64,000 nt of DNA from Candidatus Dojkabacteria bacterium. Its GTDB lineage: Bacteria > Patescibacteriota > Dojkabacteria > J137. Made by a program: the position numbers. The stretch covers positions 12,168 to 76,167 of the forward strand of contig JAUQWV010000006.1 of assembly GCA_030834985.1 (NCBI GenBank), given 5' to 3'. This document shows positions 42,001 through 48,000 of the stretch, piece after piece (the stretch's first letter is position 1; the number at the start of each line of letters is the position of its first letter).

Positions 42001-45000
42001 AGCAGCTACATTTATACTTGCAGATGGAATTACTCCAAGTAATAAAGATCAGGGTTATATTTTACGAAGATTCATTAGACGTTTAGTACGATTTGGTAAA
42101 AAACTTGGAATCGAACAGGACTTTACTGCTGAAATAGCAAAAGTTGTTATAGAAAATATGAGCTATGCTTATCCTCATTTGGAAGAAAATAAATTAGATA
42201 TTTTAGAAAAAATTACAAAAGAAGAGAGAGTATTTAAACAGACTTTAGATAAAGGATTAAAACATTTACAAAAAGTTGCAGATGAAGGTATTGATGGCAA
42301 ACAAGCATTTTATCTATACGAAACCTATGGGTTTCCACTTGAATTAACTTTAGATGAATTAAAAGTTTCTGAAGATGATGCAGAAAAGATTACCGCAGAG
42401 TTCAAGATTGAAGAAGACGCTCACAGAGCAGCCAGCAGAGCAGGAGCTGAACAAAAATTTAAAGGTGGTCTAGCAGATCAAAGTGCTGAAACAACAAAGT
42501 TGCATACAGCGCACCACCTTCTGCTGGCTGCTTTACAACAAATAGTCGATCCAGAAATCAAACAACGAGGCAGCAACATTACAGCAGAAAGATTAAGAAT
42601 TGATTTTAATTTCAATAGAGCATTAACAGATGATGAAAAACAAAAGGTTGAAGATCTAGTCAATAAAAAAATTAATGAAAACTTAGATATAGTCAGACTT
42701 GAAATGGGTAAAGATGAGGCAGAAAAAACAGGTGCCCAAATGGAATTTGGTGCAAAGTATCCGGAAAGAGTTATCATATATGTAATAGGATCTAACTTAC
42801 GTGATAATCTAACCGCTGGTAAACCACTATTCTTTGAACCAACTAGTACAAAAATAAATCTAGGAGGATTTACAAATAATACGCGTAGTAATCCAAATCT
42901 TGTAAATGATCTTCTTACAATCAAAGACAGGATCTTTTCAATTGAATTCTGCGGTGGACCACATGTTCGAAATACAAGTGAGTTAGCAGAAAATGGTAAG
43001 AAGTTTAAAATCTTAAAGGAAGAAAGTAGTGGTTCAGGAATCCGAAGAATTAAAGCAAGTCTTGTATAACAATGTTTTGGATAATACTTTTACTAGTAAC
43101 AGCATTTTTTATGGGAGCTTCCATCGGAAGCTTTCTTGGAGTTGTTGCAGATAGAAGTTCCAGACAAGAATCGTTTATAAGAACCCCATCTCACTGTATA
43201 AACTGCCAAGCTAAATTAAAGTGGTATCAAAATTTACCTGTAATAAGTTATATAGTTTTGCAAGGAAAATGTAGTAATTGTAAAGCAAGAATTCCTATAA
43301 AATTATTTGTTATAGAACTTATTTACGGAATTGCAGCAATAACTCTAATGGCTTCACTCATTGTAAGAGAATAGAAGCAATAGTGATAGGTTTTTCTAAT
43401 AGAGGAATGAGTAGCAAAATGTATATAGCTATGCTATAATATAGTAGTAGAAAAGATTAATAAGGCATAATTATCATTATCCTCAGCTCAAATCTTTTAG
43501 GTTACTGGAATCAGAAATTCTTCTTAATACAAAAACAGCAACAACAGCTAATACTATTAAAAATAATGAGACGGATAGCTGTTCTGTAGGAACCTCCCAA
43601 GGTAAAAGCTTTGCTTCAATATTTTCAGCATTAAAGAATGGCCATAAAACTCTGAGCGAAGCTAACATTAAACCAACCGAAAGGCCCATGGTTTCAGAAG
43701 GGTATTTTTTTAATCCTTTTTTTATTAATTTGACAAAGATTAAAAACCCAAATAAAACACCAAATCCAATAGCTGCAACATCAACTAATTTTTCAAAATT
43801 AACTGAGAACCGTAAAAGATCTCTAAGTAAAGTAATTACAAAATCGTAGACTCCAAAAAGTAAGAATACAAATGATATTGATATACCAGGAAGCACAATT
43901 GCACTGATTGCTACTGCTGCTGAAATAAATAGAAATATAAAGGAAGGATTCTCAACAACAGTTGGCTTTATACCTAGCATCAGGAAAAACAAAATAAATG
44001 TTAGTGCTGTTACCAATAATTCTCTAAAACCATGTTTTTTCATTTCACCCCACGGTACAGAAGTTGATGCGGCAACTAAACCAAAAAAAAATGAATATGC
44101 GTAAACAGCATGCTCATCTAATAATCTTGTAATAATCTGTGAGAATAATGCTAAAGCAACTGCAATTCCTAAAAAGGATAAGACGCCAAACTTTAAATCA
44201 ATATTTTTGAAGTCTTTCTTTAGCTCTTTTAAAGTTTGGCGTCTTAATACAAATTTAAAAACACCTTTTATAAAGTCAGAAATCTGATTTAGAAATTCTA
44301 TAAAGTCATCATAAATTCCCATGACTAAAGCTAATGTTGAACCACCAATACTAGGAACAATCTCTGCAGCTCCCATTACCACTCCTCTAAATATCATCAG
44401 TAGTTCAGTCATTTAAAGATTACTAAAAGATTAATCGGCTTTATTATATCAAGCTAGAATTTCTTTTGCAGATTGCTCGCTATTTTGTAGTTCATATTTA
44501 GCAGGAGTTGCTGAAACATAAATTGTTTGATTTGTGCGCTTTAAGAATTCCTCAAATCGTAAAGGTCTATTATCTAAAGCAGCTCTCATTCTAAAGCCAT
44601 AATCAACAAGGTTCTGTTTTCTGGCTTTATCTCCCTCGTACATTCCTCCTACTTGGGGGATTGTCATATGTGATTCGTCAACGAAGAGAATATAATCATC
44701 AGGAAAATAATCAAGCAGAGTAGATGGAGCAGAGCCAACTCCACGATTTTCTATGTATCTGGAATAGTTTTCTATACCTTTACAAAAACCTGTTTCCTGC
44801 AACATTTCTAAATCGTATGTAACCCTTTGTCTTAACCTGGTTCCTTCAATTATTTTTCCTTTATCTAAGAATTCCTGAACTTCAACTTCAAGGTCATCAC
44901 GAATTCTATTCATTGCATGGTTAATCTTTTCCTGCGGGCTAACATTATGTTTTGCAGGAAAGATCTGAACCTCATCAACACTGCCAATAACCTCACCACT

Positions 45001-48000
45001 AATTGGATTTAAGATTTTAATATCTTCAATTTGATCTCCAAAAAATATAAGTCTAATTGCGCGGTCGTCTGAGGTTGTTAAATTTACATCAATATATTCA
45101 CCGCGCACTCTAAAAGTTCCATTTAAAAAATCAGAGTTTATTCTTTCATACTGCATATCTCTTAATCTGATCATTATCTTTTCACGATTAAACTCCTCAC
45201 CTTTTTTTAATTTTAAACTTAGTGCATTGTAGTCTTGTGGATCACCCAGACCATAAATACAACTTACAGTAGAAACAATTATTGTATCCCTGCGTGATAA
45301 TAGTGATTGAGTAGCAGAGTTTCTGTACCTTTCAATAACTTCGTTGATGTCAGAATCTTTTTCGATATATAGATCTCTTTGAGGAACGTAAGCTTCTGGC
45401 TGATAATAATCGTAGTAACTTACAAAGTATTCAACTGCATTCTCAGGGAAAAAATCTCTGAATTCTGCAAATAATTGGGCGGCCAGCGTCTTATTATGAG
45501 AAAGAATCAGAGCTGGCCGCCCCAAATTCTTTATCACATTCGCCATAGTAAATGTTTTACCTGTACCAGTAGCACCAACTAAGGTCTGGTGTTTTAAACC
45601 TGCTCCTAGCCCTGCAGTTAAAAGATCAATAGCCAATGGCTGATCACCGGAAGGTTGGTATTTGGAATAAAGGTTAAAACTCATGAACTAATTATACAAT
45701 AGAGTTCAAGCTTCAGTAGCAAGCTGACCTATTCGTAAAGTAATCTTAGCTTCACCTATTTCTACATAAATTATATGCGGATTTGCCTCAGGTGCCTCTG
45801 CAACTGCAAGTTCAATATTGCTTTTTAAATCAAAGTATTTCTGTGTAGGGATAGATTCTTCTTCAATAATAATTCCTGTAAACACCCCTTTTTCTATGTC
45901 GTAAGGTGCAGTTATCTTAATCGCAAAGGTACCATATTCAGGTATCTCTAGTGCAGGGTAAAAGAAATATTTTTGTTCTAATATAACTTTGTTTATCTCC
46001 TCAACAGTAGATCTCCATTCTTGGGTTTCACTATCGGTAACTACAGAAGTATCAGGGTTCATTGTAGTAAACATGTTTTAACTATTAATATAATAATTAG
46101 GCGGAACAAAAAGCCATTCCCATTCTACAGTTCCATTTTGCTCCTTGCTTTTTCGTTCACACTCATCTATAAGTCTATTTAAAGAAGTTTTCATGCTAGT
46201 TACCCTATTAGGCTCATAACTAGCTCCAAATTCAATATATCTTTCAAACTCTGCCAATGCATTCTTAGATTCACTCCTAGATTTACCTTCAAAACTAACA
46301 TATGCGCTACTTTTCCCGTCTTCTTCTTTTCGGGCTTTACACTGGACATATTTAATAATTTTACCATTTTGTGAGATTACAAAATCAATTCCCATTTTAT
46401 CTTCTTCTTCGCTAGCAGGTCTTATATCAAATTGTTTAGGGTATCTTTGTTTAAGAACTAGCCAAGCAGAAAAAGTAGCTCCCAATGCAGCTCGAATATA
46501 TTCCGAAAATCCTGTCATGTTTCCTCCATACCATTTACCTAAAACAGATGTCATACCTCTAAAAATATTGCCAGATATTTCGCCAATTGCCCTGCCAGTA
46601 AGTATTACCTCACCTCTATCATTTGTAAATACAAGATTAGTGTAAGTAAATTCCATTAATTTAAAAAAGTATTCTAAATAGAGAATTCCGAATTTTATAG
46701 CATCTCTATTAGCAGAACTTCCAACCAATTTTTCAGATCTATCATAAATACCGTTCTTTATATTATCTAACCCAATTACTGCAATATATTTATTTAAATG
46801 GTACATTCCACGAACCAACCTGGCAAAAAACATTAGTATTCTAGTATTATTCCCTATAGGAAAATTTTCAATATAACCATCTTCCGCGATTTCAATTCCT
46901 TTTTCTCTAAGTTTTACTAAAACATCACCACTTGGAGGCTGGATAGATCCTGGGTCAATATCCTCTTCTTCTGGAAAAACATTTGAGCTGAAAAGTTTAT
47001 CCATATATTCTATTAGATCATCGATCTTAACTGCACCTTTAAGTTCAACTGGGATATCGCCTAGAGCTCGAAGAGCTTCATTAAATTTACCTAAATCTAA
47101 ATGTAGTTTTGTGTCAGGCATTGATGGCATGTATCTATTCTAAAACATTTATCCCTTTCTTGCGAGTTTTACACAGCTACAAATTTTACTCCATTCAGGA
47201 TCTAAGTAGCACTTAGGATTCCTTGCAGTACACATTGTTCTGCCATGATAAATTATTCTTAAGCCAACATCATCCCATTCTTCCTGAGGAAATAATTTCA
47301 TTAAATCCTTTTCAACTTTATCTGGATCAGTATTCTTTGTTAATCCTAGCCTAAAAGCAACTCTTTTAACGTGTGTATCAACTACGAAGCCAACAGGCAA
47401 TGTAACTTTTTCTTTTTTAGCAAACCATTGATTAATAACAACATTTGCAGTTTTTCTGCCAACGCCAGGCAAAGAAACTAACTGACTCATTAAATAAGGC
47501 ACTTGCCCATTAAATTCATTAATTATTTGCTGACTCAATTTGATAATATTCTTTGCTTTTGTATATTTATAATTTATACCGCGAAGAATTTCTGCAACAG
47601 CTTCTGGACTTGCAGTACTTAAAGCTTCCATTGTATGATACCGTTCCCACAATAAAGGTGTAACTTTATTAACTGCATTATCTGTTGTTTGTGCAGACAA
47701 GACTACAGCAACAAGTAGTGTAAAAGCATCTTTATGATGCAAAGGGGTTTCTACAACAGGAAAATCCCTTTTTAGAAGTGTATAAACTAATTTAGCTTTA
47801 TCTTTTAAAGTCATATATGAATATTCTAGCAAATGTATACCTAGTTGAGAGAGCGAGTAGAGTGATAAAAATGGGCAGTGAGGGATTCGAACCCCCGACC
47901 ACTCCGGTGTAAACGGAGAGCTCTAGCCAGCTGAGCTAACTGCCCTTTAGGGTAGTTGAATTATACTATCCTAATTGTATTATTTCAATCTAAAGGAGTA

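Follow-up and report, generated by a model that had tools for sequence, protein, structure and literature searches.

A uvrB gene that stops between the two RecA lobes in Dojkabacteria: evidence for a UvrB encoded by two genes

UvrB is a textbook single-chain SF2 helicase-like ATPase, with an ATP site located between two covalently linked RecA lobes, and is, to our knowledge, nearly universal in bacteria. The window described here, meaning the whole 64-kb stretch of DNA analysed from a Candidatus Dojkabacteria bacterium, carries a uvrB gene that ends between these lobes. The gene, its surroundings and the uvrC gene of the same window are as follows.

44449..45684, minus strand: uvrB-N, 411 amino acids, identified by ORF, Pfam and PDB alignment; N-terminal half of a two-gene UvrB
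44413..44448, minus strand: downstream spacer, 36 nt between the uvrB-N stop codon and the next gene, with a second in-frame stop inside
43483..44412, minus strand: VCA0040-like membrane protein (Pfam PF04018, E=2e-51), undecaprenyl-phosphate-translocase-like
45685..45705, minus strand: upstream spacer, 21 nt, with an extended -10-like box TGTATAAT ending 6 nt before the ATG
47149..47832, minus strand: nth (endonuclease III, HhH-GPD, by Pfam), the 5'-side neighbour and synteny anchor
17678..19156, plus strand: uvrC, short form, 492 amino acids, with GIY-YIG, UVR and RNase H-like endonuclease domains

The product of uvrB-N corresponds to UvrB residues 1 to about 411 and comprises domains 1a, 2 and 1b with helicase motifs I–III, the beta-hairpin and the UvrA-binding domain. 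In alignment with Bacillus caldotenax UvrB (2FDC, E=2e-155) it covers residues 5–411 without a gap, and it shows 55% identity to true UvrB. Walker A GTGKT, HNKTLA, DESH and SATP represent motifs I, Ia, II and III of the N-terminal RecA-like lobe, and the beta-hairpin with its conserved tyrosines (YYDYYQPEAY) is found as YFVSYYDYYQPEAYVPQRDLYIEKD, aligned to 2FDC residues 88–112. Domain 2, the UvrA-interaction domain (PF17757), occupies residues 157–246 (91.7 bits) and also matches 3FPN_B. Pfam assigns ResIII/DEAD (the N-terminal lobe) and UvrB_inter to this protein and nothing else, with no match for Helicase_C, UvrB (PF12344) or UVR. A preliminary description of this DNA had read the ORF as UvrB up to about residue 411 followed by a stop, lacking domain 3 and UVR, which the alignment and Pfam bear out. 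Its wording that the ORF ends after domain 2 needs correction, as the N-terminal module (1a, 2, 1b, motifs I–III) is complete and the gene stops exactly where domain 1a meets domain 3.

The gene closes with GAA ATT CTA GCT TGA. Another stop in the same frame, TAA, lies 5 codons on, and a reading by stop-codon read-through was rejected. The unrelated membrane-protein gene reported directly after the ORF is indeed there, namely the PF04018 gene, which marks the 3' boundary of uvrB-N and occupies the position of domain 3 in an unsplit uvrB. A tblastn search of the 64-kb window with the C-terminal parts of full-length relatives as queries gave no domain 3, the sole weak match being the UVR motif of uvrC.

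A deletion would be expected to leave a shortened helicase ORF with an unrelated gene behind it, and the gene could be a recent uvrB pseudogene with its 3' part deleted; alternatively, the stop could stem from faulty sequencing or assembly. Frameshifted uvrB genes are seen in MAGs, for example at a Filifactoraceae locus (L088) where the C-terminal part directly follows in another frame. Against artefact or decay, at least 10 independent runs or assemblies contain the identical 411-aa ORF flanked by the same genes, and the end point is kept in 108 clusters down to 66% identity. Orthologues, to which the preliminary description had looked for a decision, agree: the 108 best N-half matches (66–100% identity) are all of 398–441 aa and share this end point, the first full-length relatives (700–719 aa) appearing at 64–68% identity to the N-half. 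A neighbour-joining tree places the split forms in a single clade, with the full-length forms as its sister group. Motifs I, II and III and the beta-hairpin are present in all 108 clade members, with GTGKT, HNKTLA, DESH and SATP each found in 102–108 of 108 relatives. A contig scan with the N-half, swamped by universal UvrB peptides, returned 80 loci, 79 of them from unrelated phyla; the only relative among them (L018) has the split, and as a control ORFs of 646–1129 aa were found at 78 of the 80 loci.

As a separate observation, the 403-aa protein P0318 (42% identity, aligned over residues 1–402) is a candidate independent split. Representatives at 50% identity merge Dojkabacteria with full-length clusters and are uninformative on independent splits in other lineages.

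The part of UvrB that is missing from the window exists as a stand-alone gene of about 298 aa, containing domain 3 (motifs IV–VI) and UVR. With domain 3 and UVR of a full-length relative as query, more than 115 stand-alone proteins of 291–317 aa, named as Dojkabacteria, were recovered, with Helicase_C, PF12344 and UVR. The C-half aligns to PDB UvrB over residues 407–426 and 429–658 (E=1e-83), and in one C-half, P0130, UVR (PF02151) scores 23.8 bits with a cutoff of 21.5. All 116 C-halves have motifs V and VI, and 93 of the 116 have the AAxLRD motif. Domain 3 contains a helical insertion of about 30 aa, which is common to the unsplit Dojkabacteria relatives. In this species the C-half belongs to a nucleotide-metabolism operon, in which it comes after a dCTP deaminase and a Thy1-like gene.

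The two halves occur together. In GCA_014860145.1 the identical N-half (P0001) is located on JACZKH010000238 and a C-half (P0131) on JACZKH010000243, and both P0001 and P0131 are also present in run SRR27460160. The shared CAG102xxxx accession series of CAG1023147 and CAG1022299 suggests that these two also derive from one assembly, GCA_905339375.1. A relative provides both genes on one contig (ERZ25039495 contig_16963, 1,140,724 bp), with the N-half at 805,379-806,617 (+) and the C-half at 1,086,116-1,087,015 (-), hence about 280 kb apart and on opposite strands. Over 8 N/C pairs, 2 verified and 6 matched only through identical lengths of the carrying contigs, the two proteins diverge in step and at the same rate (Mantel r=0.73, 6/20000 permutations), with mean distances of 0.283 and 0.293. 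Being present in the same genomes, free of overlap, equal in summed length to the ancestral protein and alike in phylogeny, the halves have the properties of a vertically inherited gene fission. Of the options left by the preliminary description, a split uvrB with its second half elsewhere is the one that stands, as domain 3 and the C-terminus are found as a separate gene in the same assemblies and samples, outside the window, and once on a single 1.14-Mb contig.

Strong purifying selection acts on both halves. With pN of 0.135–0.149 for the N-half and 0.150–0.169 for the C-half, dN/dS is ≤0.08 for the former and ≤0.12 across both halves, these values being upper bounds because pS is saturated (0.63–0.77). 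The pseudogene and the sequencing error considered earlier are refuted by the clade-wide end point, the independent samples and this selection; with all catalytic motifs intact and a matching C-half in the same assemblies, artefact or decay is extremely improbable.

The partition of the protein is clean. The N-half ends in ...SATPAKYELQNSEQSAKEILA before its stop codon, the C-half starts with MAILPKDYKGIVYQIIRPTGLLDP, and unsplit P0112 reads ...SATPSEYELNLSKQSASKVFEGKGDYNGVAQQIIRPTGLIDP. The lengths sum to 411+298=709 aa, compared with 700–719 aa in the unsplit sister clade, so that, judged by sequence, UvrB itself has lost essentially nothing through the split. When P0112 was modelled with AF2, the cut site mapped to the end of helix 397–411 and to loop 412–419, ahead of strand 420–422. 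A break in a floppy linker is not supported as such, the cut being a well-predicted helix-loop junction (pLDDT ~89), a short surface loop rather than a disordered one. With regard to the ancestral locus, nth lies beside the N-half in split genomes and beside the full-length gene in the sister clade, the nth of the window showing 45–50% identity to those beside full-length uvrB. An S30AE-like gene and mnmA lie downstream of full-length uvrB and flank the C-half in split genomes, rearranged so that S30AE is upstream and inverted and mnmA downstream. Each half retains one ancestral flank, as would be expected if a rearrangement had its breakpoint within uvrB, and the arrangement around the C-half implies more than one simple inversion.

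A reduced NER system, also proposed at the outset, finds no support in UvrB, given these lengths, and applies to UvrC alone. The uvrC of the window keeps its UVR domain and has no Pfam match for HhH, as the earlier reading had it, and among its best 120 relatives (429–573 aa) only 1 has an HhH Pfam match; a UvrC without (HhH)2 is thus conserved across the clade. The UVR of the separate UvrB C-half is expected to dock onto that of UvrC. uvrA was not found in the window, hence a full NER set is assumed.

Unlinked halves of one enzyme may also be rejoined covalently, through ligation by a split intein or trans-splicing of a split intron, to give a single-chain UvrB. The dnaE gene of cyanobacteria is likewise split into unlinked halves. 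Split-intein "fractured genes" are known for DNA-metabolism proteins in metagenomes (PMC2677866) and resemble the present case in the unlinked halves of a DNA-metabolism gene, but differ in their intein halves, absent here. The N-half ends with its homology and the C-half begins within about 10 residues of where homology resumes; as the summed length equals the unsplit length, there is no space for an IntN of ~100 aa and an IntC of ~35 aa, and the spacers are short, at 36 nt downstream of the N-half, too little for an intron or intein fragment, and 37 nt upstream of the C-half. No Hint or intein match was obtained with Pfam in either half, nor a group I or II intron with Rfam in the window or in the C-half locus L011. 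Covalent rejoining can hardly apply.

The preferred reading is that the window ORF encodes the N-terminal chain of a two-gene UvrB of this Dojkabacteria lineage, and that the two halves reassemble and work in NER; we assign it a probability of about 0.8. It builds on the computed split, conservation, co-occurrence, purifying selection, clean partition and synteny. An ancestral uvrB of ~710 aa would have been cut in the surface loop between the last helix of 1a and the first strand of domain 3, probably by a chromosomal rearrangement, e.g. an inversion, with its breakpoint within the gene. The N-half, with the ATP-binding lobe, the damage-sensing beta-hairpin and UvrA-binding domain 2, would have remained beside nth. 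The C-half, with the second RecA lobe, motifs IV–VI including the arginine finger, and the UVR that recruits UvrC, would have remained with the hpf-like (S30AE)/mnmA side, now hundreds of kb away and on the other strand.

Expression of each half would be driven by a separate start. The 21-nt spacer upstream of uvrB-N contains no Shine-Dalgarno sequence and is a possible promoter of its own, giving a leaderless mRNA. A C-half gene (L011) has a similar upstream layout, TGCTAAAAT followed by 6 nt and the ATG, the -10 boxes beside both ATG codons having been recognised by eye only. A consensus promoter and terminator scan of 43–48 kb gave 15 promoter-like sites versus 20.9 in shuffled controls, that is, no enrichment.

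The two chains most likely rejoin non-covalently via the native interface between 1a/1b and domain 3, with the N-half binding ATP and hydrolysis proceeding with motif VI of the C-half. The arginine finger of motif VI is conserved in a C-half that has no P-loop, and would therefore work on the ATP site that the N-half provides. That both parts of this site are conserved suggests a DNA- and UvrA-dependent ATPase and a pre-incision complex, and the heterodimeric UvrB, together with UvrA and the short UvrC, would carry out ordinary nucleotide excision repair. Counting against a two-chain model, the RecA-lobe interfaces of SF2 helicases are normally joined by a covalent linker. Fixed substitutions specific to the split forms, the sign of a reinforced interface, were found at one position only, S139T, so nothing in the sequence indicates such reinforcement, and the stoichiometry of the halves would be uncontrolled, the genes not being co-transcribed. 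The N-terminal module is an autonomous folding unit: E. coli UvrB1-414 is a soluble protein that binds UvrD (PMC2997466), and a UvrB of 411 aa forms chain A of PDB 7EGT. These engineered fragments have a near-identical boundary (~411–414), and their 1a/2/1b fold and bind partners alone, but they are laboratory binding reagents and not natural genes with a co-evolving partner.

This binding by an isolated module is also compatible with subfunctionalisation, in which the N-half alone is a UvrA-binding, damage-probing module and the C-half, alone or with another partner, a UvrC-recruiting or helicase-lobe protein. Such a division of labour would fit the lack of interface-strengthening substitutions and two unlinked genes, ~280 kb apart on opposite strands in unrelated operon contexts. 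Mfd (TRCF) offers a precedent, as its domains 1a/2/1b resemble UvrB and bind UvrA without a UvrB domain 3; it differs in that this module is fused to other domains and has lost its ATPase motifs, which are kept here, motifs I–III of uvrB-N being invariant. With Walker A and DESH kept in all 108 N-halves and motifs V and VI in every C-half, each protein holds an invariant half of an ATPase site, which argues that the halves complement each other. The equal rates of divergence along the same tree and the UVR domain retained in UvrC likewise speak against subfunctionalisation, which is considered unlikely. Distinctly unlikely, too, is a split that yields a regulated, conditional helicase, in which UvrA would load an ATPase-incompetent N-half and the C-half would later complete the ATP site and bring UvrC, uncoupling verification from incision licensing, or in which the C-half would be shared with another P-loop partner.

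Compared with canonical single-chain UvrB (1D9Z/2FDC; B. subtilis 2D7D/2NMV), the two-gene form has all helicase motifs, the beta-hairpin, domain 2 and UVR, but is cut into two unlinked genes between the RecA lobes, so that the ATPase site must form between polypeptides. The closest parallel is found in the Nanoarchaeota, where reverse gyrase, a large helicase-related protein, AlaRS and others are encoded by split genes (PMC3655853, Table 1). There, too, a small-genome, probably symbiotic lineage shows domain-boundary fission of large nucleic-acid enzymes into unlinked genes, at the same site inherited across the lineage and without inteins; the differences are that these are archaeal and concern other proteins. 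A UvrB split is not listed in that table (PMC3655853), and no description of one was found in the literature searched.

A lineage-wide two-gene UvrB under strong selection would mean that the covalent link between the lobes is dispensable in vivo, and would provide a natural two-chain system in which to study lobe closure, UvrA hand-off and UvrC recruitment. It represents a clear bacterial (CPR) addition to the split-gene phenomenon known from Nanoarchaeota. For annotation and estimates of pathway completeness it serves as a warning, as entries named "truncated UvrB", "DEAD/DEAH box helicase family protein" and "UvrB/UvrC motif-containing protein" would be halves of one enzyme. Finally, the uvrB split is a potential synapomorphy for subdividing the Dojkabacteria.

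The uvrB gene of this Dojkabacteria lineage has undergone a genuine, clade-wide fission, with the N-terminal subunit encoded in the window and the C-terminal subunit elsewhere in the same genome. The genes of the window that bear on this are the following.

17678-19156, + strand: uvrC, with GIY-YIG, UVR and RNase H-like endonuclease domains
44449-45684, - strand: uvrB N-half, ORF of 411 aa
beginning 36 bases downstream of the N-half: VCA0040-like membrane-protein gene (Pfam), unrelated to uvrB
47149-47832: nth (endonuclease III), on the 5' side of the N-half, as in other split genomes

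In the 411-aa ORF, Pfam recognises ResIII/DEAD (the N-terminal helicase lobe) and the UvrB interaction domain PF17757 and nothing else, with no Helicase_C, UvrB (PF12344) or UVR domain. Full-length relatives, their C-terminal halves used as tblastn queries, gave no match to domain 3 in the whole 64-kb window. The preliminary description of an ORF that ends early, lacks helicase domain 3 and the UVR domain, and is followed by an unrelated membrane-protein gene is therefore borne out; its placing of the stop after domain 2 was inexact, as the complete 1a, 2, 1b module is present and the stop falls where domain 1a meets domain 3. In a search of solved structures, residues 5-411 of Bacillus caldotenax UvrB (2FDC) aligned with the N-half without gaps (E=2e-155), over a stretch that takes in Walker A, the beta-hairpin YYDYYQPEAY, DESH and SATP. 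The gene ends in EILA-TGA, with a second in-frame stop five codons on. The window ORF alone has neither domain 3 nor the UVR domain, and the N-half and C-half together carry all sequence-defined features of canonical UvrB, the closest family to the two-protein form.

A pseudogene or a stop created by sequencing error, both raised initially, would also yield a short ORF, and both are ruled out by independent assembly, fixed length, monophyly, purifying dN/dS and intact motifs. At least 10 independently assembled sequencing runs and MAGs yield this 411-aa protein unchanged and next to the same genes. The proposed comparison with orthologues showed the best 108 database matches to be likewise short (all 398-441 aa, 66-100% identity, many named Candidatus Dojkabacteria), with full-length relatives of 700-719 aa appearing only at 64-68% identity. 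A neighbour-joining tree built on the region common to all groups the 108 short forms in a single clade, whose sister group is the 12 full-length forms. Between the window gene and two relatives (78-81% amino-acid identity), pN is 0.135-0.149 and pS 0.70-0.77 (saturated), giving dN/dS of at most 0.08. Motifs I, II and III are kept in 108/108 sequences, as is the beta-hairpin. Among the control species, an unrelated Filifactoraceae MAG (JBGZSM010000087.1, locus L088, 10001-11951) has an ordinary frameshift in uvrB near locus position 11359, with the C-terminal part running on directly downstream in the next frame; the break, either a sequencing error or the mark of a young pseudogene, contrasts with the Dojkabacteria split. 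In the other 78 control species uvrB ORFs are 646-1129 aa long.

The missing half, whose location elsewhere was one of the possibilities raised at the outset, was found with a query cut from the full-length relative P0109 (residues 424-711, covering domain 3 and UVR). It retrieved over 115 proteins of 291-317 aa that stand alone, many of them named Dojkabacteria; they carry Helicase_C and PF12344, and in most cases UVR. For the window gene, the partner is a 298-aa protein (P0130/P0131) in which Helicase_C, PF12344 and UVR all score above the Pfam threshold. In assembly GCA_014860145.1 the N-half (P0001) lies on contig JACZKH010000238 and the C-half (P0131) on JACZKH010000243, and run SRR27460160 contains both. 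The C-half accession CAG1022299 belongs to the same number series as the N-half CAG1023147 of GCA_905339375.1, which suggests that it comes from the same assembly. On a 1,140,724-bp contig of a relative (ERZ25039495 contig_16963) the N-half occupies 805,379-806,617 (+) and the C-half 1,086,116-1,087,015 (-), in opposite orientation and about 280 kb apart. At other loci, the 5.5-10 kb around the N-half hold no C-half (L013, L098, L018), and the 4-10 kb around the C-half hold no N-half (L011, L016, L099).

The C-half is likewise constrained, with pN of 0.150-0.169, pS of 0.63-0.74, dN/dS of 0.06-0.12, and motifs V (GINLLREGLD) and VI (GRAAR) in 116/116 sequences. In a set of eight N/C pairs (two verified, six paired solely via contigs of equal size), pairwise distances of the two halves correlate (r=0.73, reached by 6 of 20,000 Mantel permutations) and their means are nearly equal (0.283 and 0.293), a pattern that fits halves inherited together vertically and equally constrained. 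Two further N-half-like proteins were seen. Locus L018 (CAZYSE010000016.1, labelled 'uncultured Candidatus Saccharibacteria bacterium') has a split-type N-half at 71% identity (ORF of 429 aa, stop to stop) and lacks a C-half within 10 kb; either the taxonomic label of the MAG is off, or the split clade extends past what is labelled Dojkabacteria. P0318, a 50%-identity representative of 403 aa, aligns over residues 1-402 to the N-half at only 42% identity and may represent either a separate fission of uvrB or a fragment, in a distant lineage.

The unsplit sister clade has the gene order nth - uvrB - ... - AspRS - S30AE-family gene - ... - mnmA. In split genomes the C-half directly adjoins an S30AE-family homologue, with mnmA nearby. 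By BLAST, neighbours in split and unsplit genomes share 45-50% identity for nth, 57-72% for mnmA and 28-37.5% for the S30AE-like gene (E down to 5e-19). With nth beside the N-half and S30AE/mnmA beside the C-half, each half has kept one side of the original neighbourhood. This, the opposite orientation and the distance of about 280 kb all point to a chromosomal rearrangement with its breakpoint inside uvrB, an inversion being the simplest form; since a single inversion cannot yield the exact surroundings of the C-half, more local shuffling must have followed. From the tree of short and full-length forms we infer that the fission was a single, ancient event.

The N-half ends in ...YVSATPAKYELQNSEQSAKEILA* and the C-half begins with MAILPKDYKGIVYQIIRPTGLLDP..., where the unsplit sister protein P0112 reads ...YVSATPSEYELNLSKQSASKVFEGKGDYNGVAQQIIRPTGLIDP... 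across the same junction. The halves sum to 411+298=709 aa, against 700-719 aa in unsplit forms, with no duplication and next to no loss. AlphaFold2 modelling of P0112 (mean pLDDT 88, pTM 0.81) places the cut at the end of helix 397-411 and in a short loop (412-419), ahead of the strand that opens domain 3; at this point pLDDT is about 89, which indicates a structured junction, not a floppy linker. Neither half has a Hint domain (Pfam) or room for intein halves, the spacers flanking the cut are 36 nt at the N-half and 37 nt at the C-half, and a search against Rfam gave no intron in either the window or the C-half locus, so that covalent rejoining is very unlikely. An insertion of about 30 aa follows directly after the RPTGLLDPxxExRP strand of domain 3 (P0130 residues 31-61, P0112 about 439-471). 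Dojkabacteria UvrB has it in both the split and the unsplit form, and the Bacillus and Thermus proteins lack it; it is modelled as two helices (442-455, 461-464; pLDDT >90) and is older than the split.

The N-half (47 kDa) and C-half (34 kDa) are proposed to pair by way of the contact that domains 1a/1b make with domain 3 in native UvrB. The N-half has an invariant P-loop and DESH without motif VI and the C-half an invariant arginine finger without a P-loop, a conservation that would be best explained by a composite ATP site between the chains. UvrA would load this UvrB through domain 2 of the N-half, the beta-hairpin would verify damage with ATP hydrolysis at the inter-chain site, and the short UvrC would be recruited by UVR-UVR contact, the C-half supplying the UVR. 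E. coli UvrB1-414 is soluble and still binds UvrD (PMC2997466), and 7EGT, from the structure search, is a crystallised UvrB chain of 411 aa; the N-terminal module thus folds autonomously. Only one substitution, S139T, is both fixed in and specific to split forms, which counts against a specially adapted interface.

As first described, the window UvrC keeps its UVR domain and has no (HhH)2 domain (Pfam). Its best 120 relatives (429-573 aa) have GIY-YIG, UVR and the endonuclease domain, and 119 of them have no HhH-type Pfam match (one does); this UvrC without HhH is therefore a lineage trait and no local truncation. The UVR kept on UvrC fits a functional UVR on the C-half.

Each half has a start codon of its own. 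By eye, no Shine-Dalgarno sequence is visible at the starts of the N- and C-half loci inspected, and at several an extended -10-like box ends 6-7 nt ahead of the ATG. Almost no window gene has a Shine-Dalgarno sequence, and at many starts a TATAAT-like box, frequently preceded by TG, ends 6-7 nt ahead of the start codon (also by eye). Examples of such start regions are:

window, 45685-45705
window, 17660-17677
window, 5485-5505
window, 47131-47150
L011, 4975-5000
L013, 3980-4000
L016, 3980-4000
L018, 190-206

This suggests that leaderless mRNAs are widespread in the lineage; a consensus promoter scan of 43-48 kb of the window showed no enrichment, and so no support for the boxes.

Other genes of the window are:

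11356-15036, + strand: class II (B12-dependent) ribonucleotide reductase, unusually long at 1226 aa
20756-22564, - strand: ATP-dependent DNA ligase (DNA_ligase_A_N/M/C), 602 aa, archaeal/eukaryotic type
40303-40507, + strand: T-box leader RF00230, 109.9 bits
40561-41049, + strand: GNAT acetyltransferase, 162 aa, after the T-box leader
41054-43069, + strand: AlaRS, 671 aa, after the GNAT gene
43072-43374, + strand: stand-alone 100-aa ORF, prepilin peptidase A24 N-terminal domain only (PF06750, E=1e-27)

The reductase has its barrel domain matched in two stretches, TSCPD near the end and a weak TACO1/YebC-like match at residues 305-368, and could contain an insertion such as an intein or extra domain. 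The ligase, of archaeal/eukaryotic type in a bacterial CPR genome, lies near uvrC and mutL (52906-54714). No Peptidase_A24 catalytic domain follows the 100-aa ORF, which is kept at the same position in related contigs (87-100 aa) and may be another split or truncated gene of the lineage. AlaRS stops right after the tRNA_SAD editing domain (relatives 629-671 aa), without a C-Ala/DHHA1-type C-terminal domain.

The Dojkabacteria uvrB is a split-gene form of a well-known enzyme. The closest phenomenon is that of the split protein genes of Nanoarchaeota, likewise fixed-site fissions inherited across a small-genome lineage, which include reverse gyrase, a large helicase-related protein and AlaRS (PMC3655853, Table 1); AlaRS, split in Nanoarchaeum, is in the window short at 671 aa. 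Full-text literature searches found no paper combining Dojkabacteria with UvrB, or using 'split uvrB' and similar phrases. In public databases the halves are named 'DEAD/DEAH box helicase family protein', 'UvrABC system protein B' or 'UvrB/UvrC motif-containing protein'. The split affects annotation and pathway-completeness calls of CPR genomes, and it indicates that UvrB can do in nature without a covalent link between its RecA lobes.
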